Positions 11,077 through 64,000 of a stretch of DNA of 64,000 bases are shown here, in pieces (positions within the stretch are counted from its first letter, which is position 1; each line of letters begins with the position of its first letter). Below the pieces are notes generated by a model that was not told the DNA's origin, made no database searches, and saw only the letters and a list, made by a program, of their open reading frames with translations. Position numbers and translations under genes: made by a program. Source of the DNA: an uncultured Alphaproteobacteria bacterium (GTDB taxonomy: Bacteria > Pseudomonadota > Alphaproteobacteria > CAAHEQ01 > UBA3637); the NCBI GenBank assembly GCA_944391565.1, contig CALXUB010000019.1, positions 6,919 through 70,918 of the forward strand, given 5' to 3'.

Positions 11077-11964
11077 CTATTTATTCAGCTGGGCATTCAC
11101 CTCTGCAGCAAAGTCTTCGTTCTTTTTTTCAATGCCTTCACCTAAAGCATAGCGGACATATCCTGTTAATTCAACAGGTGTTCCTAAATTTTTTGACGCA
11201 TCAGCCAAAATATCCTTAACTTTCTTGTCCGGATCCATGATATAGGCTTGTTCCATCAGCACCACTTCTTCATAGTACTTACGAATGCGGCCTTCGACCA
11301 TCTTTTCAATAATGGCTTCAGGCTTACCGGAGGCTTTAGCTTGTTCAGAATAAATTGCTTTTTCATGAGCAACTGCATCGGGATCCACGGAGGCGACATC
11401 TAAAAACTTCGGTGCACTGGCCGCAATGTGCATGGCAACTTGTTTTGCCACTTCGGCCAGTTTGTCTGCCGGTGCAGCCGACTCCAAAGCGACCAAAACA
11501 CCGATTTTACCCAAACCGGGAGCTTGTTGACTGTGCATGTAGGAAGCCACAACGCCGTTATTCACAGACAAAGCCTGCGTCCGACGCAAAGACATATTCT
11601 CGCCGATTTTGGCAATCAAGTTTGTCAATGCGGCTTTTTCGGCTTCCAAATCGCCATCGGTTAAAACCGTATCCACAACATGGTTTAAGAAATCCTGAAA
11701 CTCCGTATTTTTAGCAACAAAGTCGGTTTCTGAATTCAATTCCACAATCGCGCCTTTTTTACCATCAGCTTTGACGCCGACCAACCCCTGAGCCGCCACG
11801 CGTCCGGCTTTTTTGGCCGCGACGGACAACCCTTTTTTACGCAGCCAGTCAATGGCCGCTTCCAAATCACCGTTGGTTTCATTCAGCGCTTTTTTGCATT
11901 CCATCATGCCGGCGCCGGTTTTTTCACGAAGCTCTTTTACGAGTGCTGCTGTAATTTCTGCCAT
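11077..11964 (-). CDS. tsf: elongation factor Ts
   Basis: 295 aa with the N-terminal [30 protein letters not shown]-like EF-Ts signature. Confidence 0.9.
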
Positions 11965-36239: not shown

Positions 36240-37128
36240 GACTTCCTCCCAACAAACCGTCCGCAAAAGCGGCCGCATCAAACGGCTGCAAATCCTCGGC
36301 CGTTTCCCCGACTCCGATATAATAAACCGGTAAATGATATGTCTGTGTCAAAGCAGCCAAAATACCGCCTTTCGCCGTTCCGTCCAACTTTGTAATCAAC
36401 AAGCCCGTCACATCCGCCATTTCCTTGAACGCCGCAACCTGAGACAAAGCATTTTGTCCCACCGTGGCATCCAACGTTAACAAAACCGCATGCGGCGCGG
36501 CGGGATTGATTTTGCGTATCACGCGGATGATTTTCTGTACTTCCTGCATCAGTTGTGCTTTATTTTGAAGCCGGCCCGCCGTATCCAAAAACAAAACATC
36601 ATCTTTGTTTTTAATGGCCGCCTGATAAGCATCATAAGCGCTGCCCGCCGGATCGGCCCCCATCTCTTTGGCATAGAAATGAGCTCCCGTTCGGTCAGCC
36701 CACACTTTCAGTTGTTCAATCGCCGCCATGCGAAATGTATCTACAGCGCCGAAGCCGACTTGAAGCCCCTGCGCTTTCATTTTCTGAGCCATTTTAGCAA
36801 TCGTTGTTGTTTTGCCGGCCCCATTGACACCCACCATTAAAATCACAAAAGGCTGAGCCGAACGCACATCCAAAACACCTTCAGCCGGCTGAAGCAAAGC
36901 CGTCAACCGTTCTTTTAAAAAAGCTTTGGCTTCTTCAGGGGATTGAGGCTTCGCGGCTGCCAGTTCCCGTATCAAAACCTGCGCTGTTGAAACCCCCATG
37001 TCGGACATAATCAAGGCATCTTCGATTTCCTCCAACGCAGCGGCATCCAATTTCGTAAATCGAAAAGCCGTTTCCAACCGATCCGATGTTTTTTTTAATC
37101 CTTCTTTAAGTCTCTGCCACCAACTCAT
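36214..37128 (-). CDS. ftsY: signal recognition particle receptor FtsY (short form)
   Basis: 304 aa. NG domain with GVNGAGKTTTIAK and the DTAGR motif. Confidence 0.85.
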   Translation of the reverse strand: MSWWQRLKEGLKKTSDRLETAFRFTKLDAAALEEIEDALIMSDMGVSTAQVLIRELAAAKPQSPEEAKAFLKERLTALLQPAEGVLDVRSAQPFVILMVGVNGAGKTTTIAKMAQKMKAQGLQVGFGAVDTFRMAAIEQLKVWADRTGAHFYAKEMGADPAGSAYDAYQAAIKNKDDVLFLDTAGRLQNKAQLMQEVQKIIRVIRKINPAAPHAVLLTLDATVGQNALSQVAAFKEMADVTGLLITKLDGTAKGGILAALTQTYHLPVYYIGVGETAEDLQPFDAAAFADGLLGGSHGTDSSNA

Positions 37129-48730: not shown

Positions 48731-49491
48731 ATGTTCACTTTAACCAAAATTACCCCCCCCACCCCCCTGTTCTCCTCGTTAACCTAACTATCTGCTTCTG
48801 TTTTTCTCTTCCTGCTCACGCTAAAATCATTCAAAGAAAAATGCACATGGTCTGTCAAGAACATGAGTCTGCTTATTGGGACGGATCTAAAGGTGTCTGC
48901 TGTGACGGAAGCGTCTATCAACCAGACATTGAAGACACTTCTTATGCCTGTTGCCCAACTGGAAAAGAAGTCTCTACCGTTATGGGAAAAGAAAACCTCA
49001 ACTAGTGTTGCTCAGAAGGACAAAAGGCTTATTGGAACGGATCTTCTGCCCAGTGCTGTGCGACCGCAACGCATCAAATCGTCACTAACTACATCAACGG
49101 CGTCGAAGATGCAGGATATGCCTGCTGCGAAGTTAAAGAAGATTATTCAAAAACATACTATGATGGAGATATTACCGAGACTGATTATTACTCCGGATAT
49201 TCCATTGCGGGGGCTGTTAACGGCAAATGCTGCGGCGGATATGCCAGTATTACTTATGCTGATTATGGTCAATCAACAAACAGTCATGCTGTCCGCCAAA
49301 ACGGCGGTGTTTACTATTGTGCTTCAAACTACAATAGAGTAGACTTATATACAGGAGATGAAACGCGGACATATGTCAGCAATAGCCAAGTTTGTTATGG
49401 TATCGGCCATGGGTACGAATATTGCTACTGCACAACGACAGGAGACCCAGACAAAGGAAACATATGCTGTTTTTATCCTGACTGTCCTTAG
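48731..49491 (+). pseudogene. phase-variable / disrupted secreted cysteine-rich protein gene (ATG 48731 out of frame by +1 with downstream frame; in-frame TAG at 49003-49005)
   Basis: The ATG-led frame MFTLTKITPPTPLFSSLT* stops at 48785-48787. The frame open from 48730 encodes …VLLVNLTICFCFSLPAHA (signal-peptide-like), then Cys-rich CQEHESAYWDGSKGVCCDG…, a TAG, then CCSEGQKAYWNGSSAQCC… through to the stop at 49489-49491. A +1 C insertion would fuse the ATG to this frame. Confidence 0.5.
48753..48767 (+). repeat. homopolymeric C tracts (C8-A-C6) inside the 5' end of a coding frame – candidate slipped-strand phase-variation site
   Basis: Counted directly: tacccccccc acccccc. Lies between an ATG (48731) and an out-of-frame signal-peptide/Cys-rich reading frame. 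Confidence 0.6.
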
Positions 49492-49501
49492 TCTTTCAGC
49501 T

Positions 49502-51175
49502 TTAACGCGTTAACGGTTTGTATTTAATGCGATGCGGGCCGGCGGCTTCGACGCCCAAGCGCCGTTTTTTGTCGGCTTCATATTCCTCGTAATTACCTTC
49601 GAACCAAACGACCCGGCTATCGCCTTCAAAAGCCAAAATATGTGTCGCCAACCGATCCAAAAACCATCTGTCGTGAGACGTAATCACGGCACAGCCGGCA
49701 AAATCCAGCAAGGCTTCTTCAAGCGCACGCAAAGTATCTACGTCTAAATCATTGGTCGGTTCGTCCAACAAAATCACATTTGCTCCTTGTTTGAGCATTT
49801 TTGCCAAATGCACGCGATTGCGCTCACCGCCGGACAGCTGCCCGACCTTTTTTTGTTGATCGCCGCCTTTAAAGTTAAACTGCGCCACATATGACCGAGA
49901 CGGCACCTCGCGTTTGCCCAGCGTTAAGAGGTCTTTGCCGTCTGAAATCTCCTGCCACACGGTTTTGTTCGGATCCAGCTCATCACGTGTCTGATCGACA
50001 TAGCCCAGATGAACGGTTTCTCCGACGCGAAATGTGCCGGCATCAGGTTTTTCCTGTCCGGTAATGATTTTCATCAAAGTTGTTTTGCCGGCGCCGTTCG
50101 GACCGATGACACCGACAATACCGCCGGGCGGCAAGCTGAAAGTCAGATTTTCAAACAACAATTTATCGCCGAAACCTTTTTTCAAATCCTTTGCTTCCAA
50201 CACCAGATCCCCCAACCGCTCAGCCGTCGGAATGATAATCCGTGCTGTCGCGGGTGCTTTATCCGAAGCTTTTTTCACCAACTCCTCAAAAGCCGCAATT
50301 CGTGCTTTGGATTTTGCCTGACGTGCCTTGGGAGACTGCCGTATCCATTCCAGTTCCTCTTTCATCGTACGCTGACGCGCAGTTTCCTCGCGCTCTTCCT
50401 GAGCCAATCGTTTTTCCTTTTGTTCCAACCAGGAAGAATAATTCCCCTCGTAAGGAATGCCCTCTCCGCGATCCAGTTCCAAAATCCAGCCTGTCACGTT
50501 ATCCAAAAAATACCGGTCATGTGTCACCATCACGATTGTTCCCGGATAGTCTTTTAAGTGTGTCTGAAGCCATTCCACCGATTCGGCATCCAAATGATTG
50601 GTCGGTTCGTCCAAAAGCAGCAAGTCGGGTTTACTGAGCAGCAAACGACACAACGCGACGCGACGACGTTCACCTCCCGACAGCTTGGTCACATCCGCCT
50701 CCCCGGGCGGACAACGCAAAGCATCCATGGCAATATCAATCATGCGTTCCAGCTCCCACCCGTTGCAGGCGTCGATTTTTTCCTGAAGCTCAGCCTGTTC
50801 AGCCAACAGAGCATCCATATCGGCATCCGGATCGGCAAACTTCATGTTGACGTCTTCAAACTTTTTCAACAAGTCACGGATTTCACCCACACCGTCCATG
50901 ATGTTTTCCATAACATTTTTGGCGGGATCCAGCTGTGGTTCCTGTTCCAAATATCCGATACGAACCCCCTCGGCCGCCCATGCTTCCCCTCTGAAGTCCG
51001 TATCCAAGCCGGCCATGATTTTCAACAAAGTCGATTTACCGGCGCCGTTCGGTCCCAAAACACCGATTTTCGCTCCCGGATAAAAAGACAACCAAATATG
51101 CTTTAACACTTCTTTGCCGCCCGGCCAGGTTTTGCATAAATCTTTCATTACATAAATATATTGATACGCCGCCAT
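49502..51175 (-). CDS. ettA: ABC-F family ATPase EttA-like (energy-dependent translational throttle)
   Basis: Track ORF 49502..51235. Probable start [13 protein letters not shown], giving ~557 aa. Two ABC cassettes with Walker A motifs (GPNGAGKST and GPNGAGKTT). The C-terminus is typical of EttA. Confidence 0.8.
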
Positions 51176-51343
51176 GTTGTTTTCCTTTCTTGTTTCAATG
51201 GATGTGTTTGTAGCATGATCTTTTCTTTTTTTCAACCTTTTTAAAAACCGTAAAAAAGAGGTTGATTTTTATCCTTTTTTCATATATAATTCGATGTATT
51301 CATTTATCCGATTTTATGTTATTTTAAACAAGGGGACACAAGC

Positions 51344-51904
51344 ATGCAGGCTTATCACCAGGGAACAGTTGATTTCTTTTGTGCTGTGTATGCCATTATC
51401 AATGCGTCGCGGCTGTTGTTAAACGATGTCAATATCCGGTTCAGTTATGAACGCGGTTGTCATTTTTATCAGCATTTGATGACATATCTTCACGACAACG
51501 AGTATTTTATCCGGGTTTTAAAAAGCGGCACGGATTATAAATTGATGGATGAGTTGCTACAGGAAGCTTGTCGCTATTTGGAAAAGCAATTCAAAGGCTA
51601 TCGCATCACCTTTTCATATCCTTTTCGCAAGAAACGCGTGAAAATCCAAAATTTGCTGCAGCATGTCGAAGACTTTTTTAATCATCCCAAACAAACGTGC
51701 ATTATGCGCTACCACAACTTTGTGGAGGGCGATCATTGGAACGTGCCGAGGATTATTACAAAAAACACACATATTCTGAAATTTTGGGATCGCATTGAAA
51801 CAACGTTTGCCGTTGATGAATTAACCCTCAAACCTTACAAACGCGACGACCTGACGCATATAGCCAAAGACGGCGTAATTTATTTAACTTTGACAGAAAA
51901 ATAA
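51344..51904 (+). CDS. hypothetical protein (186 aa), possible Cys-His hydrolase fold
   Basis: An N-terminal Cys in a hydrophobic context (FFCAVYAIINA) and a later His (GDHWNV). I recognised no family. Confidence 0.45.
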   Translation: MQAYHQGTVDFFCAVYAIINASRLLLNDVNIRFSYERGCHFYQHLMTYLHDNEYFIRVLKSGTDYKLMDELLQEACRYLEKQFKGYRITFSYPFRKKRVKIQNLLQHVEDFFNHPKQTCIMRYHNFVEGDHWNVPRIITKNTHILKFWDRIETTFAVDELTLKPYKRDDLTHIAKDGVIYLTLTEK

Positions 51905-51967
51905 ACAAAATATCTTGCTCTTTGGGGTGAATCGTGCTATTCTTGAAAAAGATAGAGGAGAGGTTTC

Positions 51968-53326
51968 ATGAATATACAACAATTTTTGGATAAACTGGAG
52001 CTGCTGCGAGCCAAAGGCCGACAAAAGCCGACCCTGACCGAAGACCAAAAGTCCGAGCTGAAAAAACATCCCAAAGCCGCACGAACGGCATTGAAAAAAA
52101 AGTATTTGGAAGAAGCTCAAAAAGAAGTTGAAAATTGGATTTTCGGTATGCTTCAGGAAATGGAAGCCGATATTAAAGCCTCCGGTCTGCCGCCCGAGGC
52201 CGTCCAAGCTTTGTTGAACGCTTTGTCAAATGTCAAAGATGCCCGTTTCGTAGTGTCGCCGCAGGTCCTTGATAAAGTGGAAGACTTGAAACGCGAAGCC
52301 GAAAAACTGCAACAGGAACAAAAAAATCAATCAACGGCACAAAATGACCTTTCCCCGTTGCCGACGGCGGCTGCCGCTATAACCCTCACGTGGGGAGTCA
52401 TTGCTTTTGAAACCAAAAACAAAAAATACTACAAAGAAAAATTGATCCATCAACTGGCCGAAAGCACCCCCGACGCCGATTTGGTAAACCTGCCGGCGGA
52501 AGAATCGGGGTTTGTCCACAACCTGCCGCCTCGTCCGGCACGAGGCGTCGGTCGCAAACAACGCCGGGCTGCCTGGAAATTATGGCGTTCGGGCGCCCAC
52601 CGGGAAAGCGAACAACCGCCACCGCCGCCGGCTGCCTCCGGAAACGCTTACAGCCAACTGCATTATGATACGTTGCAAAGCCAGGCGCAGGATCTTAATG
52701 CTTATTTGCTCAAAGATGTTCAAGCCAAACGAAAAACCGACGGAAAACCGCACGTTGCCGACAATGTGATTTTGGCAAACCTGGCCGCGGCTTATCCGGC
52801 GCAACAGCGCTTGGCACAGAAAGCCGTTTATCAGGTTCATCCTGACTTAAAGGAAAAACACCAGGCCCAAACATTGGAAGCGGACAGCATGGATTTACTG
52901 AAAGGCGTAATCCGTCAGGAACGCGCCGTTCGCCAGGCAAAAGCCAAAATTCTGGAAAAGAAACTGAAACACATACTGCAAGCACACAAAGAAGCGCTCC
53001 GACAAACGCCGGATATCAAAGTGCCGCATTTAATCACTATTCAAACGGAATTGAATACACATCGACAAGTGCTGGCTCATTTGGGATTGGTGATGGACAA
53101 CTTTGACAAAGTGTTGGCCCAAAACAACCTGACAGCGACCGCGTTGATGAAAGACAGAGCCCGGATAATGTCTCAAGTGATGGCTTTGAATGTGACCGAC
53201 CTTCGAACCCGCAGCCCGTTAAAGCAGCGTTTGGGCACATTGGAACAAGAAACCACTCGTTTGCCGATGAAACGCATGCCGGGGCTGGCACACGTCAAAC
53301 GGCGCAACGGTCGACAAATTGCCTAA
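51968..53326 (+). CDS. hypothetical coiled-coil / low-complexity protein (452 aa)
   Basis: Rich in K, E, Q and A, with a PPPPPAASG stretch. No signal peptide. Confidence 0.5.
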   Translation: MNIQQFLDKLELLRAKGRQKPTLTEDQKSELKKHPKAARTALKKKYLEEAQKEVENWIFGMLQEMEADIKASGLPPEAVQALLNALSNVKDARFVVSPQVLDKVEDLKREAEKLQQEQKNQSTAQNDLSPLPTAAAAITLTWGVIAFETKNKKYYKEKLIHQLAESTPDADLVNLPAEESGFVHNLPPRPARGVGRKQRRAAWKLWRSGAHRESEQPPPPPAASGNAYSQLHYDTLQSQAQDLNAYLLKDVQAKRKTDGKPHVADNVILANLAAAYPAQQRLAQKAVYQVHPDLKEKHQAQTLEADSMDLLKGVIRQERAVRQAKAKILEKKLKHILQAHKEALRQTPDIKVPHLITIQTELNTHRQVLAHLGLVMDNFDKVLAQNNLTATALMKDRARIMSQVMALNVTDLRTRSPLKQRLGTLEQETTRLPMKRMPGLAHVKRRNGRQIA

Positions 53327-53341
53327 GAACATTTCGGACAC

Positions 53342-53929
53342 TTAAAACTGATTTTGAATATATCGATGCAACGTCACCCAACGACAGTTCATCAAACGGG
53401 CAATTTCGGCTTTGGAAACGTTTTGAGCCAGGAGTTTTTTTATTCTTTCGTGATTTTCCAAAAGATGTTGGTAGGAAAAACCAAACGGGCGCCCCAGATG
53501 TTTTCCTTCTTCTTTTAACCGCTGCAACGAGTTTTTGGTTCGTTGAGAAATAAGCTGCCGTTCGATTTCTCCGGCCAGACAAAACGCAAAAGCCAAGACT
53601 TTGGATTGGATGTCTCCGCCCAAGCGATAATGCTCTTTTAAAGTCCAAATCCGGCAGTCTTTTTCCAAACACTGCTGTAAAATACTCATGACCTCCAACA
53701 AATTGCGTCCCAAACGAGAAAGCTCGGTTGCAATCAGAACATCTCCTTTTTTCAGCTGTTTAAGCAGTTTGCCCAGTTTTCGGTTGTTTAATGTTTTTCG
53801 GGAAGAAATAATTTCTTCGATCCATTTATCGATTTTCATATTTTCTTTTTTGGCAAAAGCTAAAATTTCATGTTTTTAATTTTCAACATGCTGATGGTCG
53901 GTGCTGACCCGAATATATGCGTAATACAT
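53342..53929 (-). pseudogene. serine recombinase (DNA invertase/resolvase family) gene disrupted by in-frame TAA
   Basis: ATG at 53927-53929 encodes MYYAYIRVSTDHQHVEN and then a TAA stop (53876-53878). Translation resumes in-frame with ...KIDKWIEE… (track ORF 53342..53839). It aligns codon-for-codon with the intact paralog at 62451..63050, where a Q occupies the stop position. Confidence 0.7.
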
Positions 53930-54012
53930 TGTTTTTCCCTTATAAATAAGTTGCTCACATTGATAAGAACTAACAATAAGGATTAAAGATTGTCTTAAAA
54001 AACACTGTCTTT

Positions 54013-54141
54013 ATAAACCAGCGTTTATTGATATATGCATTTATATGTAAGATATGAAATATTATTTAAATTTTTATTAATAAAATAGTATTTTTACAAC
54101 TTTTTTGTTTTTTTTTATTTTATTCATAAACGCTGGTTTAT
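54013..54141. promoter_or_regulatory. candidate invertible promoter switch: perfect 16-bp inverted repeats (54013-54028 ataaaccagcgtttat; 54126-54141 ataaacgctggtttat) flanking a 97-bp AT-rich segment
   Basis: Inverted repeats read directly from the sequence. Each repeat is itself a near-palindrome (ataaac-NNNN-gtttat). The segment carries TTGTAA-N17-TAAAAA on the minus strand. It lies between the recombinase pseudogene and the ATG of the giant surface protein at 54172. Confidence 0.5.
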
Positions 54142-54171
54142 GCACAGGGCCCATAACAGTGATGAGACAAA

Positions 54172-57100
54172 ATGATTAAAAAAATACTTTTCAGTTTAGT
54201 GACCTTTGGATTGATTTTCAGCAATTCAAATGTTTCCGCACAAGTAAGACCGATGAACATTGCGCAAGCGAATCCCCGAACAATGATATATCATTATGCA
54301 CAAACCGGGAATCTTCAAAATCTGCTTTTATTAAAAAGACAAGGCTATGCCATCGACCTTGTTGATGAAAAAGGCAACAGTGCGTTATGTGAAGCCACCT
54401 GGCGACAGAACCAAACAGCCGTCGATACACTCATTCAAGCCGGCGCGGATACAAACAGCACCTGCATGCAAGAAATCCCGCAATCATATAAAGACGCCGT
54501 CAACATTACTTATATGGACGAACCCATCAACACACTTCGCAAACCCTCTAAGGCCGGCACAATTTGCTCGATCAGCAACAACGGTACACGAACTTGCACG
54601 CCTGTTTTGCAAGACGGCACTGTTGTTGCCGGAACCGACAAAGCCTCTGATCGTGCAGCAGCTGCCTATGTCATCGATCACAGCATCGGAACAACAGCTG
54701 CCGGAACCAATGAAGGCCTCAGCACCGGCGTTAAAATCGGTATCGGCATCGGTGCAATCGCCCTGATCGGCGGCGGTATCGCATTAGCCGTCGGTGGTGG
54801 TGGCGGCGGCGGCGGAAAAGGGAACGGTTCAACACCTACCGACCCCACTCATCCTGATAATCCGGACAACCCGGACAATCCCGGCCCCGATAATCCGGAT
54901 AACCCGGACAACCCCGATAACCCGGATAACCCCGATCCTGATAATCCGGATAACCCCGATCCTGATAATCCGGACAAGCCCGACCCTGACAATCCGGACA
55001 AGCCTGATCCTGACAATCCGGATAACCCCGACCCTGACAATCCGGACAAGCCTGATCCTGACAATCCGGATAACCCCGATCCTGATAATCCGGACAAGCC
55101 TGATCCTGATAATCCGGATGAACCAACCAAAATATGCAACGCCGGTGAATTCCTGACTGAAGCGGAAACATGCGAAAAGTGCGGACTGGGATATTACGCC
55201 AAACACGGATCGAACATCTGTACACCGTGCGCAGTCGGCAGCTATGCCAACCAATTAGGTTCCATTGTTTGCACGGCTTGTCCCATCGGTCGAAGCACTT
55301 CCGGGATTGCTTCCACTTCTTGCGACGTTTGCGCGACCGGCTACAAACAACAAGGAGAGTCGTGTCTGCCGTCATGCCGAGCCGGAGAATACTGGGACGG
55401 CAGCATGTGCGCGGCTTGTCCGCAAGGCACCTTCTCTATCGCCGGTGCAACAACTTGCTCGAAATGTCCCGATGGATATACAACGGCAGAAGAAGGCAGT
55501 TCTTACTGCGATGCCTGTCAAGAAGGGTATGTCTGGCTGGACGGATTTTGTGAGCAACAATATGAATTAGATCCCCAAGCTGTTTGTCAGCCCGGGTATC
55601 GACCGAACGATAACGGCGGATGTTCTCCCTGTCCGATTGATTCCTATGGCAGCGACGGCACCAATTGCTATCGTTGCCAAACCGGCTATACGACAAACAA
55701 AACAGGTTCCACCAGTTGCGATATTTGCGAGGAAGGATACTATTCCGACAATGGTGTTTGCCGGCCCCATTGTCAAGCCGGATATTATTGGGATGGCAGC
55801 AACTGTCAAATATGCGCGCCCGGTTCTTACTCCTCTAAAGGCAGTTTAAGTTGTACCGCGTGTTCCAGAAACACTTACCAACCATCAGCCGGTCAATCAA
55901 CATGTATTTCTTGTCCCGTCGGTTCATTGACCGAATCTGCCGGTGCGACAGCCATTGAACAATGCAACACTTGCTATGGCGGTTATATTTTAAAAGATGG
56001 TTCTTGTCAAACCTGTCCGGCCGGATCTTATGCGGACAGCTCATCCAACACCTGTGTTCAATGCCCGATCGGACAATACAGTCCATCTGAGGGACGAAGC
56101 GCTTGTTCTACATGTCCGGAAGGACAGACAACAACCGCCCTCGGATCGACAAGTTGCAGCTGTGACACAGCCAACGGTTATATTGCCGTCGGTGATGAAT
56201 GCCGCCTGAAACAATATTCCTGCGAAGCCGGCAATTATTGGGACGAGACAGAAGGCAGCTGTCAAACTTGTGAAGCTGGAACGTTTTCGGCTTCCGGTGC
56301 GAACTACTGTACCGCCTGCCCATATGGTTATTTCAATGCTTCAGCCGGTGCCGCCGTCTGCCAGGCATGTCCTCAAGGATGGACAACGTCATCCAACGGC
56401 ATGACAAAATGTGATATTTGTGCCGATGGGTGGACCATGGAAAACGGACAATGCGTCACAACCTGCCCGGCCGGACAAGTTTACAACGGTTCGGCGTGTG
56501 AAGCCTGTCCCATCGGCAGCTTTGCACTCAAAGGGGCTTCTTCATGTACCCTCTGTCCGCAAGGCTGGACAACATCCGCGGCCGGCGCCCTCACCTGTGA
56601 CCTCTGTGCGGACGGTTATCAACTGAATTCATCCACCGGCAATTGTGTTCATCAGGATGAAGGCGTTTGTGACGCCGGATGGGCTTGGAACGGGACTGAA
56701 TGTCAACCCTGCCCGGCCGGTGAATATTCCGAAGGAGAAAACTCCCTGTGCCACAAGTGTGCCATCGGGTATTATTCTACACAGGAAGGCAGCACCAGCT
56801 GCACCCGCTGTCCGGTTGGATCTACGACACAGGAAGAAGGTTCTACCAGTGCCTTGCAATGCAACATCTGCGGCATCGGATATTCTTGGTCCGCAAGTGA
56901 AGGAAAATGCGTCACGGAATGTAAGAACGGTATGTTTTGGAACGGATCGACCTGTGAACTTTGCCCGGCCGGAACCTATACCAGAGGCTTAGAAAATAAT
57001 GGCGCTATTCCAACTTCGTGCCAACCTTGTTCCGCCGGCACTTATTCTGCAATAGAAGGCGCCACATGGTGTTCATATTGCCCAAGTCACTCAACCTCTG

Positions 57101-60100
57101 TTGAGGGAGCAACCGACATATCCTTTTGCACTTGCGAAGACGGCTATTATAACACAGATAAAGTAACCGTTAATTGTGTGCCGCATTGTCAAGCCGGTCA
57201 AAGATGGACCGGAACCGAGTGTGTTGACTGTGCGGCAGGGACTTATTCATCCTCCAGCGGGGCAACTGAATGCTACCGATGCTTTTACGGTTCGATTTCC
57301 GAAGCCGGCGCAACCAGCTGTACATCTTGTCCCGAAGGTTTTTCGACTTCTGCCTTAGGATCAGACACTTGCGATATTTGCGCTGCGGGATATGAGGGAG
57401 ACGGCACAACTTGTACAATCTGTTCTGCCGGCACCTATTCGAATGCTTTGACGAATCGCACATGTATGCCTTGCGCGATCGGAACGTATATCAGTACTGA
57501 CGGCGGATCTTCCTGCACGGCTTGTCCGACCGGTTATACAACCGAAACAACAGGCTCCTCCGACGTCGAAGCTTGTCGTATCTGTTCGGAAGGCTACATC
57601 ATGAAAAACGGTAAATGCGTCGCCAACAACAAATCATGTGCCGCCGGTGAATATTGGGCAGGTGATTCCTGTGCTTCCTGCGCTGCGGGAACGTATTCCG
57701 TGGAAGGTTCCATTGCCTGCTTACAGTGCCCGAAAGGTACATATACTTTGGAAAGCGGAAGTCAAAGCTGCACATCCTGTCCCGAAGGATTTACGACCAT
57801 GGGTTTCGGATCCACAACGGCAGACGCTTGCTCAATCTGCGCGGAAGGATATAAGTCCGACGGCGCGGGCGGATGCGTCTTGGCACGGGAAACATGTCCC
57901 AGCGGAGAATACTACAACGGCTTTCAGTGTGTCTCGCTTCCTGAAAACGCCCAAACCGATGCAGATGACATCCGAGGATGGACCTGTGTCAGCGGTTATA
58001 CCCGCGTAGGGGATAACTGTATCTTGACGACAGATTTAAACATTACGACCAATCCGCAAGACACAACATTAACATCAACCATGACGGCAACCCTTTCGAA
58101 TGCCGGATCGGTGCTGGCTGTCAATGACGGCACGATTGAGATTTCCGAAACTGAAGGCAGCTCCAACAGTCTGGTCGGCATGAAAACAACGGGGTTTGGA
58201 TGGGGAAGTTATGAGGCCTATATCGTCAACAACGGCACCATTCAAATGACATCAGAGCAGGCTTCATTGACCGGTATTGACGCCGCTAGCCATTTTGCCG
58301 ATAACAACGGCACCATCCGGTTATCGTCCAACTCGGGCAGTTTAAATGGTATAGTAGCCAAAAAAGGATATAATTACGGCCAAATTGAGTTGACCGGCAG
58401 CAAATCTATTAACGGGATGAGCAGCAACTCTTATAACTCTGAGTTAAAAAATTACGGCTCTATTTTGTTAAACGGAACAAACAGCAATTATCTTTGTGGT
58501 ATCTCTTATAACGATACGAGCGATGTAATGGAGAACTACGGAACCATCCAAATCAATTCTTTTGAAGGAAGTAGTATGAGCGGTATGTCCGGAGACTTAT
58601 CCGTCAACTATGGCACCATTCGTATTCAAGATTACCAAAACATTTCCACGTCTTCAAGCTACCTGACAACAGGAATGAACGGCGGGAAAAACTATGGAAA
58701 TCTGTTCATAGATGTGCAAAACAGTGAAAAAGAGTATATTGTCAGCGGCATTCATTCCGGACAAAACTACGGAATGATTGACATCTATGCTCGAAATCTG
58801 GAGAAAAACACCCAATTATCCGGAGCGAATGCTTCAACTAATTTCGGAACCATTTCGATTGTCGCGGATCATGTTAAAAGCATCACCGGCATACTAAACG
58901 GCAACAATTATGGAACGATTCGGATGAACACTTCCGACACATCGACGGTCACCGGATTGAATATACAAAACAACGGAATGATAGAAATAATTGCATCCGG
59001 CGCGACAAATGTCTACGGTGTCTATAGTCCCTCTTTTTATGATACTCATAATAACGGCATGATCAAGGTGACATCCATTGGAAAAGAGACAAACACCACT
59101 GCCGGTTTGTACAACACAAAAAACTACGGTGACGTTTATGTCAGCGGATCCGGACAATATTTGTATGGTTCCAAGGGAATATCTGCTTCCAATTACGGAA
59201 ACATCACACTGACCGGCTCTGCCGATTATGTTTACGGAATGGATGGCTATTATAACAGCGGCACGATCCGTATCGATGCCTCCAAAACATCTTATGTTGT
59301 CGGCATGAAGCCAAGCACTATTTCCACGAATGAAGGAAAAATCAGCATCATCAACAGAGGAAATAACGCTGTTTACGGCATCTTGAATTATATTTCGACA
59401 ACAAATGCCGCCGGAGCGGAAATCAATATCGAAAACACCGGAAATGGAACGGCTCACGGCATTTCGGGCGGCTATTCCGTCTATAACGACGGAACAATCC
59501 GAATTACCAATACCGGCAACGGAACAGTCTATGGTATCGACAATGCGACTTCAGTGACGAACAGAGGTCTGATTGAAATTACCAATACCGGCACGGGGCA
59601 AGCCTATGGCATTTATCTGAATGGAGCCGACAAATTCGTTTCCAATGAAGGAACTATCTCCATCAACGGCACTTCCTACACAGGCAACGCACCGTCCGGC
59701 AATTTCATTGTTCTGGAAAACAACGCCAGCTTGGCAACCAGCGGAACATTATCAAGCTCGGGTGCACTGGATTTGAACGCTTTTTCACCGGACGGAACAG
59801 GGCGCATTGCATTGATGCCCAACGGCCGTGTAGAGGGCGAATCTATCTCGGGAGATTTACACATCGACGCATCCAACGTGACGAACGGATTTAAAACCGC
59901 TTACACACTGTCGGATGCCGTCAAGGCCAAAGAAACAAGCAATTTAAACTTAATTTCCGACTCGGCTTTATTTAATGCCGATTTGGCCGACAACGGCGAA
60001 GATGTCATTATGCAAATGAAATCTTTTGACCAAGTGACTGCCAACAAAAGCCTGGCTGATTTTTTGACGGCAAATTATGCGGCTGCCAACAACGAAACAC

Positions 60101-61029
60101 TCTTTAACGAGTTAAAATCAATTGAAACGCAGAAAGCTTTAAGCTCCGCCGTTAAATCCATAACGGGCGCCGAAATCATGACACGGTTCGCCAACGAAGA
60201 TTTAACCGCTATTCGTGATGTCAACCAAACCATGAACAGCCTGATGTTTGCCAATAACGACAAACCGATGTTCGAAGCAACCGGCGCTTTAGACACCTTC
60301 AGCTTTAAAAACAACGATCAATCCTCGGCGCAATATGCGTTAGCCAACAAACGGATCACGCCGCGCCTTAAAATCGGCTATGCCATGAGCAACACGAACA
60401 TGAGCACGGACGATGATCACGACACCACACGGCGAAACAATATCTTCCAAGTTTTCACGCCCGTCAACTATGACCGCTTTGGCTGGCAGTTCATCTCAAC
60501 GCCGCAAATCGGATATGCTCGCGCGCATTATACGCGTCAAGGATGGAACTCCATGTCCTATGACGGTATTTTGGAAAAAAGAATCTTTGCTTTGATGAAC
60601 GAAGCGCGCTACCCCATCGATTTAGGAAAATGGGACGTGTCGCCGACAGTCGAATTGAATGCAATCATCTATAACCAAAGAGGACATGAAGATAAAAAAG
60701 CATTTGCCCTCAGAATACCGTCAGATAACAGTGTCTCCCTGGAAGCCGGTTTGGGTTTCTATCTGCAGCGAAAGTTAGGTGATTTGAATGTTTCCATGGG
60801 GCTGATGCTTTATCGAGAATTTGCCGACCCCTACACCATGAAGGCCGGCATGCAAGAGATGAACGGAACATTTGACTTGTATGATGAAAAATATTCTCCT
60901 TACCGTGGAACAGCCTCTTTCCTTTTCGGCTACGACCTCGGCAGCTTTAATCTGTATGGTTCCCTGAAACACTTTATTGAAAATGACACGCATACCCATT
61001 TGAAAGCAGGTGTGAAATATGCCTTCTGA
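54172..61029 (+). CDS. giant autotransporter-like surface protein with tandem ephrin-receptor-like (GCC2/GCC3-type) cysteine-rich repeats
   Basis: 2285 aa. The layout runs: signal peptide (MIKKILFSLVTFGLIFSNSNVSAQV); an ankyrin-like repeat (GNSALCEATWRQNQTAVDTLIQAGADTN); a Gly-rich hydrophobic stretch; a (PDNPD)n linker; ~900 aa of repeats C-x2-C-x2-G-x-Y-(S/T)-x4-6-C-x2-C; a passenger-like region with NYG repeats; and a ~290-aa C-terminal beta-barrel-like domain ending …LKAGVKYAF. Confidence 0.75.
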   Translation: MIKKILFSLVTFGLIFSNSNVSAQVRPMNIAQANPRTMIYHYAQTGNLQNLLLLKRQGYAIDLVDEKGNSALCEATWRQNQTAVDTLIQAGADTNSTCMQEIPQSYKDAVNITYMDEPINTLRKPSKAGTICSISNNGTRTCTPVLQDGTVVAGTDKASDRAAAAYVIDHSIGTTAAGTNEGLSTGVKIGIGIGAIALIGGGIALAVGGGGGGGGKGNGSTPTDPTHPDNPDNPDNPGPDNPDNPDNPDNPDNPDPDNPDNPDPDNPDKPDPDNPDKPDPDNPDNPDPDNPDKPDPDNPDNPDPDNPDKPDPDNPDEPTKICNAGEFLTEAETCEKCGLGYYAKHGSNICTPCAVGSYANQLGSIVCTACPIGRSTSGIASTSCDVCATGYKQQGESCLPSCRAGEYWDGSMCAACPQGTFSIAGATTCSKCPDGYTTAEEGSSYCDACQEGYVWLDGFCEQQYELDPQAVCQPGYRPNDNGGCSPCPIDSYGSDGTNCYRCQTGYTTNKTGSTSCDICEEGYYSDNGVCRPHCQAGYYWDGSNCQICAPGSYSSKGSLSCTACSRNTYQPSAGQSTCISCPVGSLTESAGATAIEQCNTCYGGYILKDGSCQTCPAGSYADSSSNTCVQCPIGQYSPSEGRSACSTCPEGQTTTALGSTSCSCDTANGYIAVGDECRLKQYSCEAGNYWDETEGSCQTCEAGTFSASGANYCTACPYGYFNASAGAAVCQACPQGWTTSSNGMTKCDICADGWTMENGQCVTTCPAGQVYNGSACEACPIGSFALKGASSCTLCPQGWTTSAAGALTCDLCADGYQLNSSTGNCVHQDEGVCDAGWAWNGTECQPCPAGEYSEGENSLCHKCAIGYYSTQEGSTSCTRCPVGSTTQEEGSTSALQCNICGIGYSWSASEGKCVTECKNGMFWNGSTCELCPAGTYTRGLENNGAIPTSCQPCSAGTYSAIEGATWCSYCPSHSTSVEGATDISFCTCEDGYYNTDKVTVNCVPHCQAGQRWTGTECVDCAAGTYSSSSGATECYRCFYGSISEAGATSCTSCPEGFSTSALGSDTCDICAAGYEGDGTTCTICSAGTYSNALTNRTCMPCAIGTYISTDGGSSCTACPTGYTTETTGSSDVEACRICSEGYIMKNGKCVANNKSCAAGEYWAGDSCASCAAGTYSVEGSIACLQCPKGTYTLESGSQSCTSCPEGFTTMGFGSTTADACSICAEGYKSDGAGGCVLARETCPSGEYYNGFQCVSLPENAQTDADDIRGWTCVSGYTRVGDNCILTTDLNITTNPQDTTLTSTMTATLSNAGSVLAVNDGTIEISETEGSSNSLVGMKTTGFGWGSYEAYIVNNGTIQMTSEQASLTGIDAASHFADNNGTIRLSSNSGSLNGIVAKKGYNYGQIELTGSKSINGMSSNSYNSELKNYGSILLNGTNSNYLCGISYNDTSDVMENYGTIQINSFEGSSMSGMSGDLSVNYGTIRIQDYQNISTSSSYLTTGMNGGKNYGNLFIDVQNSEKEYIVSGIHSGQNYGMIDIYARNLEKNTQLSGANASTNFGTISIVADHVKSITGILNGNNYGTIRMNTSDTSTVTGLNIQNNGMIEIIASGATNVYGVYSPSFYDTHNNGMIKVTSIGKETNTTAGLYNTKNYGDVYVSGSGQYLYGSKGISASNYGNITLTGSADYVYGMDGYYNSGTIRIDASKTSYVVGMKPSTISTNEGKISIINRGNNAVYGILNYISTTNAAGAEINIENTGNGTAHGISGGYSVYNDGTIRITNTGNGTVYGIDNATSVTNRGLIEITNTGTGQAYGIYLNGADKFVSNEGTISINGTSYTGNAPSGNFIVLENNASLATSGTLSSSGALDLNAFSPDGTGRIALMPNGRVEGESISGDLHIDASNVTNGFKTAYTLSDAVKAKETSNLNLISDSALFNADLADNGEDVIMQMKSFDQVTANKSLADFLTANYAAANNETLFNELKSIETQKALSSAVKSITGAEIMTRFANEDLTAIRDVNQTMNSLMFANNDKPMFEATGALDTFSFKNNDQSSAQYALANKRITPRLKIGYAMSNTNMSTDDDHDTTRRNNIFQVFTPVNYDRFGWQFISTPQIGYARAHYTRQGWNSMSYDGILEKRIFALMNEARYPIDLGKWDVSPTVELNAIIYNQRGHEDKKAFALRIPSDNSVSLEAGLGFYLQRKLGDLNVSMGLMLYREFADPYTMKAGMQEMNGTFDLYDEKYSPYRGTASFLFGYDLGSFNLYGSLKHFIENDTHTHLKAGVKYAF
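54837..55125 (+). repeat. tandem ~15-nt DNA repeat (cc(t/c)ga(t/c)aatccggacaa(g/c)) encoding (PDNPD/PDKPD)n linker inside the autotransporter gene
   Basis: About 19 consecutive near-identical units are visible. All three frames remain open across the tract, which produces the overlapping repeat ORFs listed in the track. Confidence 0.8.
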
Positions 61030-61030
61030 G

Positions 61031-61060
61031 AAAAGCAGGCCTGATCCGGGCCTGCTTTTA
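61031..61060 (+). terminator. rho-independent terminator after the autotransporter gene
   Basis: aaaagcaggcc-tgatccg-ggcctgctttt: an 8-bp GC stem followed by a T-run, immediately after the TGA. Confidence 0.7.
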
Positions 61061-61104
61061 CAAGCATTTCAAAAACAGGCGGATAAAACTCTTTCAATAT
61101 ACTG

Positions 61105-61257
61105 TTATTTTCTTCGAAGACGAATGAAAAAACCCGACCGATAATAAATCAGGTCAATCATTGCAGCAACCAGCGCAATCACGACAACCGTTTTTCCAAA
61201 CCAACCGAGGGATGTGAACAAATACCATAGCTCTTCCAGCGTTGCAAGAAAATTCAT
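61105..61257 (-). CDS. small hydrophobic ORF (50 aa; MNFLATLEELWYLFTSLGWFGKTVVVIALVAAMIDLIYYRSGFFIRLRRK)
   Basis: Below the track's length threshold. Found by reading the minus strand. One predicted transmembrane helix and a basic C-terminus. Confidence 0.25.
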   Translation of the reverse strand: MNFLATLEELWYLFTSLGWFGKTVVVIALVAAMIDLIYYRSGFFIRLRRK

Positions 61258-61380
61258 GTCATACCTCTTATGTTTGAACTCGTTTTTTAAAAATTACCAC
61301 ATCAGATGTATTTTGACAAGGTTTTCTCATTCTATTGTTAAAAAGCGTTAAAAGGAGAAGCGGGAGCATTTCGGATTATT

Positions 61381-61586
61381 AAACCCGTCCGTTGGACAGA
61401 TTCTCCTCAATGCGAAAAAAGCCGGAATGTAAAACGGCTGACGCTCGTTTTATCCCTTCGGGACCGTCCCAAGGACGTCGTTCCCGCGGGCAAAATATCG
61501 CCCGCGCTTACCGAACCTCCGGTTCGCTTCAACGCCTGTCGGCGATTATAAAATAAAAACCCGTCCGTTGGACAGGTTTTTATTTT
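61381..61586. repeat. 19-bp direct repeat aaacccgtccgttggacag (61381-61399 and 61568-61586) bracketing a GC-rich structured ~170-bp segment; second copy embedded in a 12-bp IR (aaaataaaaacc…ggtttttatttt)
   Basis: Exact repeat seen directly in the sequence. The intervening segment contains the hairpins cgcgggc-aaaatat-cgcccgcg and agccg…cggct. Confidence 0.4.
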
Positions 61587-61905
61587 ATGGTGCGGAAAGC
61601 CGGATTCAATCCATTTTATAAATAAGCCTTGATTTTTCTTGCTTTTTCAATTTGTTGCATTCCAAAATTACACAGTTTGCATCACAATCAAATCACATGT
61701 TTATTATATATCAAAAAAGTATGGATGTAAGCCTTTTTTTGTCATCCCGATAAAAAAACAGGCAAGGTTTGGAGCCGATGGCAGTATGAATATCCACCTT
61801 TTTGCAATCATTCGCTTAAAAATTGGCTTTAAATTGTTAAATTTTATCGGGAGAGGAACAAAATCTATCCATAATTAAAAAAGAAGTCTGTTTTGTTTGA
61901 TTTTT

Positions 61906-62388
61906 CTATTCATCCTCATCGTCATCAGTCATTGGATCCATTGATTTAATAAAATTGCCGGTTTCTTTGTCTTTAATTTCAACAACAGTCCATTGAATGT
62001 CATCTCGGTTGAATTTAACTTCAATATTTTCGGATGCTTCAAAAACAGCAGCACCAATAAAACAATCCGTTTGATATGTATTTTGCAAGTGTTCTTCAAG
62101 GTGAGGTGTTAATCTGCAAACGCAAACCATACCAGAATCAGCAAAAAATTCAGGTTGTGTGACATTTTCACCATAAAGTCTGTTTGTCCAGTCGCCAAAA
62201 CCTGTTTCGCAAACATAGGCAGGATAACCGGTTCGCATATATAGGCATTTTTCAACCAATTCATTAAATTTTGCCCAATCTCTGACGTGTTTACAGCATT
62301 TTGACCAAAGTTCATCATTTAATAAATAACAAGGGTCTGTCACAACGTATTTAACCATATTAAAACTCCTTTTCGCTTGATGTTTCAT
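61906..62388 (-). CDS. hypothetical protein (160 aa, acidic C-terminus DDDEDE)
   Basis: ORF in an AT-rich segment between the autotransporter and the intact recombinase. I recognised no family. Confidence 0.45.
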   Translation of the reverse strand: MKHQAKRSFNMVKYVVTDPCYLLNDELWSKCCKHVRDWAKFNELVEKCLYMRTGYPAYVCETGFGDWTNRLYGENVTQPEFFADSGMVCVCRLTPHLEEHLQNTYQTDCFIGAAVFEASENIEVKFNRDDIQWTVVEIKDKETGNFIKSMDPMTDDDEDE

Positions 62389-62450
62389 ATACTTATTATG
62401 TCGTAAGTGCCTTAAAAAGTACGCAAAAAAACACTGGGATTGGAAAGAAT

Positions 62451-63050
62451 TTAATGTGGAAAAATGTTTTCAGACCTGATGTACCTATGAAGCGTAATCC
62501 AAGAACAGTCCATCAGTCTGGCTATTTCAGCTTTTGATACATTTTTATTTAATAGTTCTTTGATTTTTTTATCTTTCTTTTTTAATTTTTGATATGAAAA
62601 GCCATAAGGACGTCCTAAGTGTTTGCCTTCATCTTTTAAGCGTTTTAATGAATTTTTTGTTCTTTCGGAAATAAGCTGTCGTTCAATTTCGCTGGCAATT
62701 GAAAAAACAACGGCCAGCAATTTACTTTGAATATCAGCACCTAAGTGATAATTTTCTTTCAAAGTCCAGACTTGACAGCCTTTTTCAAGACAATTTTGTA
62801 AAATACTCATAACTTCCAATAAGTTGCGTCCCAGTCTGGATAATTCGGTTGCAATCAGAATATCGCCTTTTTTAAGACGCTTTAATAATTTGCCTAACTT
62901 CCGTTCATTTAAATGCTTTCGAGAGGATATTTGTTCTTCAACCCATTTATTGATCTGGATATTGTTTTCATTTGCAAAAGTTAAAAGTTCATGCTGTTGG
63001 TTGGCTGTATTTTGTTTGTCTGTACTGACCCTGATATATGCGTAAATCAT
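62451..63050 (-). CDS. serine recombinase, DNA invertase/resolvase family (Hin/Gin/Pin-like), intact
   Basis: Track ORF 62451..63083. The likely start is MIYAYIRVSTDKQ (catalytic-serine motif YIRVSTxxQ). A C-terminal HTH (SKAEIARLMDCSWITLHRYI). About 200 aa, typical of small serine invertases. Confidence 0.8.
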   Translation of the reverse strand: MIYAYIRVSTDKQNTANQQHELLTFANENNIQINKWVEEQISSRKHLNERKLGKLLKRLKKGDILIATELSRLGRNLLEVMSILQNCLEKGCQVWTLKENYHLGADIQSKLLAVVFSIASEIERQLISERTKNSLKRLKDEGKHLGRPYGFSYQKLKKKDKKIKELLNKNVSKAEIARLMDCSWITLHRYIRSENIFPH

Positions 63051-63234
63051 CGTAAAATCCTTATAAAAGTTGTTAAACACCATTATAAGAACTACTAAAA
63101 ATTGTTAAAAAATCACTGCTAAAAATAGACGCTATACATATATCACCGTCTATTTGATACATTGAAACAACACAAAAAATGGTTTCCCTAATTTTACTCT
63201 TTCGGTCATTATATTTAATTAAATTAAGGAATGC

Positions 63235-63282
63235 AAGCTTTTCCATCTAAACCACCGAAAAAACCTACAAAATCGGTGGTTT
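63235..63282. promoter_or_regulatory. 11-bp inverted repeat (aaaccaccga…tcggtggttt) abutting the start codon of the methyltransferase-like gene
   Basis: taaaccaccg-aaaaaacctacaaaa-tcggtggttt-ATG. This is either a stem-loop or an operator overlapping the RBS region. Confidence 0.35.
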
Positions 63283-63966
63283 ATGAATAGAATATCAGAC
63301 CAAATTGTATCAAAAAAACGGGTTGCAGATCATGGAGAGGTTTTTACCAATCCACGTGAAGTAAATGCGATGTTAGACCTTGTAAAACAAGAGACAGAGC
63401 GTATTGAAAGCCGTTTTTTAGAGCCTGCTTGTGGCAAAGGTGCTTTTTTGGCAGAAGTTTTACGTCGAAAATTAGCTGTTGTAAAAAGCAGGTATGCTAA
63501 AAGTCCTTTAGAATACGAACGTTATGCCATTTTAGCCATCAGCAGTATTTATGGAATCGATATTTTGGAAGATAATGTTGCCGATTGTCAAAATGAAATG
63601 CTGTCAATTTTTAAATCGGAATATAAAGCCGCTTTAAAACAAGAGTGTTCAGATGAATGCTTAAATTCAGCTCAATTCATCCTTCAAAAAAACATTGTTT
63701 GGGGTGATGCATTGACTTTAAAACGTGTTGATCATCCGGATCAGCCTATCGTTTTTTCGGAATGGTCGGCTGTTAATGGTAAAATGATGAAACGACGTGA
63801 TTATTCATTTAGCCAAATGGTTAACTGTTCAACTGAAGGCTTGCCCTTGTTTAATGTGAATGACAAGGGGGAGGATGTTTGGGCTCCAAGGCCGGTAAAA
63901 GAATTTCCATTAACACATTATTTGAAATTAGCAGAGGCAGAAAGAGAAGTTAATGATGCGGCCTAA
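63283..63966 (+). CDS. N6-adenine DNA methyltransferase-like protein (gamma-class motifs X and I present; catalytic NPPY/F motif not found)
   Basis: 227 aa. GEVFTNPREVNAML resembles motif X and EPACGKGAFL resembles motif I (FxGxG). Where motif IV is expected, the sequence reads IVWGDALT. Confidence 0.4.
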   Translation: MNRISDQIVSKKRVADHGEVFTNPREVNAMLDLVKQETERIESRFLEPACGKGAFLAEVLRRKLAVVKSRYAKSPLEYERYAILAISSIYGIDILEDNVADCQNEMLSIFKSEYKAALKQECSDECLNSAQFILQKNIVWGDALTLKRVDHPDQPIVFSEWSAVNGKMMKRRDYSFSQMVNCSTEGLPLFNVNDKGEDVWAPRPVKEFPLTHYLKLAEAEREVNDAA

Positions 63967-64000
63967 TCTTTATAATCCTGATGTACTGACTTGTTTAGCC

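Follow-up and report, generated by a model that had tools for sequence, protein, structure and literature searches.

In Bacteroides fragilis, the serine invertase Mpi flips 13 distant regions, including seven polysaccharide promoters (PMC4747536), and deletion of mpi locks those promoters (PMC10403206); restriction–modification functions are also placed under inversion, as in the Type I system of B. fragilis (PMC7641763) and the hsdS epigenetic invertons (PMC7672463). The invertases Hin, Gin, Cin and Pin follow the same logic of promoter or segment inversion (that is, of the Salmonella H segment and the phage Mu G segment), and shufflons depend on a tyrosine recombinase (Rci) and on many sfx sites inside coding segments. 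Here we analyse a 64,000-nucleotide (nt) stretch of an uncultured alphaproteobacterium (assembly GCA_944391565.1, contig CALXUB010000019.1, positions 6,919 to 70,918; hereafter the window), in which two paralogous genes for small serine recombinases, copy A and copy B, lie in direct orientation on the minus strand (Table 1). A first-pass annotation of the window had taken them to bracket a 9.7-kb recombinase-driven variable cassette, either shufflon-like or excisable. We propose instead, with high confidence, that both genes encode the invertases of their own small promoter switches and that the window contains two phase-variation modules of a single family, each independent of the other. The system belongs to a known kind, promoter invertons with Mpi/Hin-type serine invertases, as a new member.

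Each module comprises an Mpi-like serine invertase gene and an invertible promoter segment of ~130 bp situated 84-90 bp upstream of it; two inverted 16-bp sites of hix/gix-like form (ATAAACC-NN-CGTTTAT, with a non-palindromic central dinucleotide) delimit the segment. Its predicted promoter, of the sigma-70 type, would face the invertase gene in one orientation and the target, which is transcribed divergently, in the other. Independent public assemblies contain each of the two segments in either orientation, with exact junctions. The two 16-bp cores of switch A lie between copy A and a gene for a 2285-amino-acid (aa) protein, and 16 of the 22 sequences that span them are arranged as in the window; in the other six (contigs L099, L100, L106-L108 and L115), the interior is exactly reverse-complemented between both cores. 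Switch B is window-like in 24 of 27 spanning contigs and inverted in the remaining three (L017, L130 and L131), where the junctions are exactly CACCG/CGGTG; L132 shares the invertase allele of L130 and L131, yet its switch B is window-like. The sequence ATAAACNNNNGTTTAT has two exact matches in the 64 kb, both of them switch A sites (0.12 expected). We infer that the A and B enzymes are the catalysts of these inversions.

Ten gut alphaproteobacterial relatives (metagenome-assembled genomes; MAGs) show the same layout: their arms measure 12-26 nt and stand 100-120 nt apart, with 78-90 nt between the proximal one and the ATG, and two pairs of relatives (L011/L012 and L016/L018) are in opposite switch states. 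Several invertase paralogues occur per related genome (JAZSQL01, for instance, has three loci). The central dinucleotide, at which crossover would take place, is AG in switch A, AC in switch B and AC, AA or CC in the paralogous invertons of relatives, which face glycosyltransferase and rhamnose-type polysaccharide operons, lipoproteins and other surface structures. Further sites were sought in the window, and only AAACCAGCGTTT (the 12-mer of the switch A core) turned up a third time, at 34253-34264; this copy falls within a gene of 945 aa on the minus strand (33444-36281) and has flanks that do not fit, and we judged it a chance match. Metagenome contigs of the Joint Genome Institute, scanned with a fixed-flank pattern for each switch, gave no matches.

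The two recombinases, which the first-pass annotation had put at ~80% identity, are 73% identical as proteins (141/194), and the alignment of the loci at the DNA level that it recommended gives 69% identity for the genes (global alignment) with a longest exact common run of 16 nt. Both reading frames contain the nucleophile motif YIRVSTD (YxRVS type), which aligns with the N terminus of Gin. The Pfam Resolvase family (PF00239) matches copy B at 1.8e-34 (profile positions 1-144) and, in copy A, a 165-aa open reading frame (ORF) that starts at an internal ATG (53839) and lacks the catalytic Ser9, at 7.3e-20 (positions 34-145). HTH_38 reaches 18-19 bits in the two copies, under its cut-off of 27, some homologues have a precomputed PF02796 domain, and the alignment to Gin extends through residue 189. 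Against NF009949, the NCBIfam ‘master DNA invertase Mpi family’ (equivalog cut-off, 272 bits), the intact form of copy A scores 269.1 bits and copy B 260 bits, over profile positions 1-197 of 203; the two proteins appear to be Mpi-like invertases that fall outside the Mpi equivalog as near misses. The nearest solved structures are those of Gin (4m6f and 3uj3; E ~5e-16, 62 bits over ~189 aligned residues), and Tn3 and gamma-delta resolvase structures are also among the PDB matches. The predicted recognition regions of A and B are nearly identical (VSKAEIARLMDCSWITLHRYI versus VSKAEIARLMNCRWVTLHRYI). Upstream of the start codons, the two loci share 60-66% identity over 50-130 nt versus ~49% for shuffles, exceeding 200 of 200 shuffles, so that the homology previously described for the upstream ~90 bp is modest but real; it stems from a conserved leader (GTTCTTAT..N..TTATAAGG) and the proximal recombination site. 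As a separate observation, a diverged Mpi-like protein of 207-214 aa comes first in an inverton-facing polysaccharide operon in L010 (9110-9733), L019 (4827-5462) and L020 (9130-9774); these proteins score 64-67 bits to NF009949 without a YxRxS serine motif, and may represent a catalytically dead recombinase that was reused as a regulator.

The modules resemble the Mpi system in a serine invertase of ~200 aa with NF009949 as its best NCBIfam match, in short promoter segments between inverted repeats, in a gut commensal host, in the polysaccharide operons, lipoproteins and surface structures targeted in relatives and, probably, in action in trans. They differ from it in their hosts (uncultured gut Alphaproteobacteria versus Bacteroidales), in an expanded family with an invertase gene beside each inverton (Mpi is a single master copy), in promoters that are sigma-70-like (TTGCAA-17-TATAAT) rather than of the Bacteroides -7/-33 type, and in the placement of one module on a mobile island, where it would control a restriction–modification operon. 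The site consensus here is ATAAACC-AC-CGTTTAT, and the Mpi repeat consensus is ARACGTWCGT, of which the ARACG half is common to the sites here. Like the gix and hix sites (..AAACC-GA-GGTTT..), the sites here are imperfect palindromes around a 2-bp non-palindromic centre, and the logic of inversion is shared with Hin, Gin, Cin and Pin, of which Gin has the closest structure. Unlike in the Hin and Gin systems, however, the invertible segment, of only ~130 bp, does not include the invertase gene and carries only a promoter; sequence similarity to Gin is low, and no recombinational enhancer of the Hin/Gin kind is recognizable from the sequence. The switch B operon under an invertase recalls the inversion-controlled Type I and hsdS systems, but with a promoter flip before a Type IIG-like operon and without the shuffling of specificity genes. 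With shufflons and excisable elements the locus shares recombinase genes near repeated sites; unlike shufflons, it has serine enzymes and two intergenic sites per unit with no exchange of coding segments, and its sole integrative element is the tRNA-Leu island, driven by a tyrosine integrase.

The interior of the segments contains a conserved promoter-like sequence (AAAAAG(C)TTGCAA/T-N17-18-TATAAT-like) that points at the invertase gene in both window modules, from which we infer that the targets of both switches are OFF in the window. In switch A, the predicted promoter consists of TTGTAA (54099-54094), an 18-nt spacer and AAAAAT (54075-54070), and follows an A-rich tract (T9 at 54108-54116 of the plus strand); in switch B, it consists of TTGCAT (63236-63231), a 17-nt spacer and TATAAT (63213-63208). 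The homopolymer inside switch A is 7, 8 or 9 long across contigs, and a second tract, A7 at 54178-54184 (codons 3-5 of the giant target gene), reads A6, which shifts the frame, in L106-L108, L115 and L117; four of these five contigs have switch A inverted. The two tracts may be additional layers of slipped-strand phase variation, or may reflect assembly noise. In two other samples, L090 (7852-9814) and L092 (1-183), genes for an IS1595-family transposase and an S-adenosylmethionine-dependent methyltransferase are inserted inside switch A at the homopolymer tract (~ window 54110-54115), which pushes the two recombination sites apart.

Module A is chromosomal, and module B is the cargo of an integrative island at tRNA-Leu(UAA). 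Island-free strains (L091, L095, L096 and L105) keep the copy A locus and lack copy B, window positions 49006-61607 are colinear with such strains at 99%, and their tRNA-Leu(UAA) ends exactly at the insertion point of the island, which has a G + C content of 34-38% versus ~46%. In several other species and contexts, the copy B module recurs at 97-99% identity on contigs with flanks that depart from the window at position 61587, and copy B itself is 99% identical in three different species-level MAGs. In L030, where the island measures ~11 kb, the order is tRNA-Leu(taa) (496-583), a tyrosine integrase (a 475-aa Phage_integrase protein; 720-2147), cargo genes, the inverton, copy B, the 160-aa ORF and the tRNA 3'-end repeat (11446-11465). 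The window shows only the far island border; Rfam and tRNA scans of 60900-64000 and 50000-64000 gave no matches, in the case of the tRNA because it sits at the other end of the island, outside the window. In the strain of the window, the island landed ~560 bp past the end of the giant gene, and this insertion is the sole reason that two invertase genes seem to bracket 9.7 kb.

With this in mind, we regard as negligible the probability that the paralogues and their sites delimit one 9.7-kb cassette subject, as a whole, to excision, inversion or shuffling. Such a cassette could account for paralogous genes in direct orientation, for same-family recombination sites adjoining both and for a 16-nt inverted match (94%) of 54116-54131 to 63279-63294; however, the entire interval is colinear in strains without copy B, the right-hand unit is a tRNA-inserted island with its own tyrosine integrase, the sites of each unit form an inverted pair ~100 nt apart, and both units flip locally. 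As pairing partners we rejected the two matching stretches, which are both distal sites of one family and differ in their cores. Serine recombinases require matching 2-bp overlaps, and a mismatch blocks productive exchange. The central dinucleotides of A and B (AG versus AC) do not match, and the longest identical run of the two genes is too short for efficient RecA recombination, so that deletion or inversion of the interval, like recombination between the A and B sites in general, would be unlikely. Alternative arrangements of the interval, for which the first-pass annotation advised a look in related genomes, occur in no contig, the only rearrangements seen being the two local ~130-bp inversions. 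The copies are parts of two unrelated units that have an inverted pair of sites apiece, which is the outcome that the first-pass annotation had named as refuting its cassette. All of the elements that the first-pass annotation listed between the two genes exist, but the 50-aa ORF and both copies of the direct repeat are core chromosome, and only the 160-aa ORF belongs to the island. It is likewise highly improbable that copy B is the mobility enzyme of the island (that is, a resolvase or integrase) instead of a promoter invertase. Although copy B always moves with the island, at near identity across species-level MAGs, and small serine recombinases are often transposon resolvases (as the Tn3 and gamma-delta matches recall), the island ends are a duplication of the tRNA-Leu 3' end with the tyrosine integrase beside the tRNA in L030, the segment next to the start of copy B occurs upstream of it in either orientation, joined exactly at CACCG/CGGTG, and the top family match is the Mpi invertase.

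More weight attaches to the question of whether switch A can still flip, as copy A is broken. It reads MYYAYIRVSTDHQHVEN*KHEIL..., that is, a TAA follows codon 17 and the frame is then kept to its 195-codon end; the catalytic Ser9 is upstream of the stop, and YIRVSTD is cut off from the rest of the protein at codon 18. Copy A with Q18 repaired equals protein P0001 at 100% identity, and all 25 contigs with an intact copy A, which come from other samples, have CAA at codon 18 (25/25), which confirms the CAA-to-TAA change proposed earlier; copy A also remains, as first described, a recent pseudogene. The TAA18 allele is found in the window and in three other samples (L009, L115 and L116). Other lesions are R44* in L118 and L119 and a 1-nt deletion in L117, the latter alongside a G-to-A change in the switch A proximal core, which brings the independent knock-outs (Q18*, R44* and the deletion) to three among 32 sequences. 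TAA18 occurs with both orientations of switch A (inverted in L115; the other orientation in L116, the window and L009). Since L115 and L116 share TAA18 and three further single-nucleotide polymorphisms (SNPs) in the gene and yet have opposite orientations, they point to inversion after inactivation and to a trans-acting paralogue. We suggest that a paralogous invertase in trans probably keeps switch A flipping at some rate; the action of an intact paralogue is plausible and partly supported, and copy B may be considered one candidate enzyme. To this extent, the earlier idea that an intact copy could act in trans has indirect support. It is possible, although we doubt it, that switch A is phase-locked instead, with invertase A dead, flipping stopped and the state of the giant gene fixed. 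The place of Ser9 upstream of the stop, the three independent knock-outs, of which the L117 deletion is accompanied by the core change (a pattern suggestive of recurrent locking), and the window-like orientation of five of the six spanning sequences with a broken gene all agree with locking; the inverted switch of L115, on the very haplotype of L116 (TAA allele and three SNPs), does not, and the several paralogues per related genome, the capacity of Mpi-type enzymes to work on distant sites (PMC4747536) and the match of the switch A half-sites to the family consensus also speak against it.

Several points weigh against our interpretation of two invertase-driven promoter switches with residual flipping of switch A. 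Both proteins score just under the NCBIfam Mpi cut-off. The ON/OFF call rests on homology of the TTGCAA/TTGTAA -35 element; the copy-A-facing promoter of switch A has a weak -10 (AAAAAT), and alternative hexamers, TTTACA (54093)-17-TATTTT (54121), point at the giant gene and score equally well or better, so that the window state of switch A could be ON for this gene. A consensus promoter scan did not separate the two candidates, and promoter-like matches in the AT-rich switch stretch are no commoner than in shuffles. As for action in trans, nothing links copy B specifically to switch A, and the presence of TAA18 in two orientations could stem from homologous exchange between co-resident strains instead of trans flipping. 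We also regard it as rather unlikely that the flipping of a chromosomal adhesin switch whose own invertase is repeatedly lost passes to a horizontally acquired invertase of the island, either copy B or a paralogue like it; if true, mobile islands would rewire the phase-variation network of their hosts, and the differing dinucleotides (AG, AC, AA and CC) would insulate paralogous switches from recombining with each other.

Under the proposed two-switch arrangement, the target of switch A is a giant surface protein with a signal peptide, an Ank-like N terminus, PDNPD tandem repeats, ~10 Ephrin_rec_like Cys-rich repeats and a C terminus (...VKYAF) that forms a terminal beta-signal-like motif, L-K-A-G-V-K-Y-A-F. 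Of the autotransporter features implied by its earlier designation, only the signal peptide and the beta-signal-like motif are visible, and the beta-domain is not confirmed: the autotransporter beta-barrel (PF03797) has no Pfam match at E up to 1, no barrel was found by NCBIfam or PDB sequence search, and a single-sequence AlphaFold2 model is unusable (predicted local distance difference test score, 29.7). Tandem 9/15/24-nt repeats at 54853-55131 encode the PDNPD(N/K)PD low-complexity stretch, and the length of the protein across strains is 2055-2285 aa. In the operon facing switch B, a 227-aa methyltransferase-like ORF is followed by an Eco57I-type methylase that starts at 63956; in L001 and L017, an Eco57I-type methylase is followed by an 839-aa T5orf172/ResIII protein, and together they match a Type IIG enzyme profile.

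Table 1 Features of the two inverton modules and of the intervening chromosome, in window coordinates
Feature	Coordinates	Strand	Remarks
Copy A, Mpi-like serine invertase gene	53342..53929	-	Inactivated by Q18*, TAA at 53876-53878
Copy A fixed leader and own-promoter region (predicted)	53930..54012	-	Motif GTTCTTAT..TTATAAGG common to copy B and relatives
Switch A proximal site, ATAAACC-AG-CGTTTAT	54013..54028		Palindromic hix/gix-like core ATAAACCAGCGTTTAT
Switch A invertible interior	54029..54125		
Switch A distal site, ATAAACG-CT-GGTTTAT	54126..54141		Core ATAAACGCTGGTTTAT; 31 nt before target ATG
Switch A target, 2285-aa secreted repeat protein	54172..61029	+	
50-aa hydrophobic ORF	61105..61257	-	Core chromosome, outside any recombinase unit; 50-aa genes in L091, L095, L096
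Hairpin and T-run directly downstream of tRNA-Leu in island-free strains	61548..61588		Contains second direct-repeat copy
Island boundary, duplicated 3' end of tRNA-Leu(UAA), attachment (att) core	61588..61607	-	...TCCGGCTTTCCGCACCA
Left part of low-GC (34-38%) integrative island	61608..64000		Runs off window
Acidic 160-aa ORF	61906..62388	-	On island, always downstream of copy B
Copy B, Mpi-like serine invertase gene	62451..63050	-	Intact, 199 aa, Ser9 in YIRVSTD
Switch B proximal site, ATATATC-AC-CGTCTAT	63138..63153		
Switch B invertible interior	63154..63268		Found inverted in L017, L130, L131
Switch B distal site, AAAATCG-GT-GGTTTAT	63269..63284		Reverse complement ATAAACC-AC-CGATTTT; overlaps ATG at 63283
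Switch B target, start of Type IIG-like restriction–modification operon	63283..64000	+	

The island itself is a mosaic (compare L029 with L030 3800-9666, L036 8090-8899 and L130-L132 3596-4288), in which one inverton, copy B and the att module are joined to cargo that differs between genomes. The cargo of L029 is a Type IIG-like operon, whereas that of L030 includes genes of the GIY-YIG, Fic and C5-methylase types, with only ~100 nt of the methylase ORF left; in some versions, an additional ORF of 230 aa separates copy B from the acidic ORF. The acidic 160-aa ORF has no credible family in Pfam, NCBIfam or PADLOC; a 170-aa homologue adjoins a 549-aa large serine recombinase in L012 (11635-12147). 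The position of the 160-aa ORF on a restriction–modification island suggests a putative anti-restriction or regulatory role. On the chromosomal side of the border, the hairpin downstream of tRNA-Leu can be read as the tRNA-Leu terminator. The direct repeat of 19-22 bp, with its first copy at 61381-61402 and its second in this hairpin, occurs in island-free strains too. Between the 50-aa ORF and the border of the island, the spacer (61381-61604) contains two copies of AAACCCGTCCGTTGGACAG(A/G)TT, is 71% similar to L001 9691-9859, which lies close to the island in another species, and matches no Rfam family. On the far side of copy A, between it and an ABC-F (EttA-like) gene, ORFs of 186 aa and 452 aa (51344-53326) are kept in every strain of the species; the former has no family match in Pfam, NCBIfam or PADLOC, and the sole match of the latter across these three is QRICH1 in Pfam, at 19.3 bits and under the cut-off of 30.8; the 452-aa protein has a Gln/Pro/Lys-rich, low-complexity appearance.

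In summary, uncultured human-gut Alphaproteobacteria appear to use a strategy known from Bacteroides, in which Mpi-like invertases flip small promoters before surface structures, with the expansion to one invertase per switch and with a switch-controlled restriction–modification operon that travels across species on a tRNA-targeted island. For annotation, ~200-aa ‘resolvases’ with an inverted ATAAACC-NN-CGTTTAT pair ~85 bp upstream would mark phase-variable genes, and the region should not be labelled a composite mobile cassette. The recurrent knock-outs of copy A, together with one dead allele found in both switch states, provide a testable case of cross-talk between paralogous invertases.

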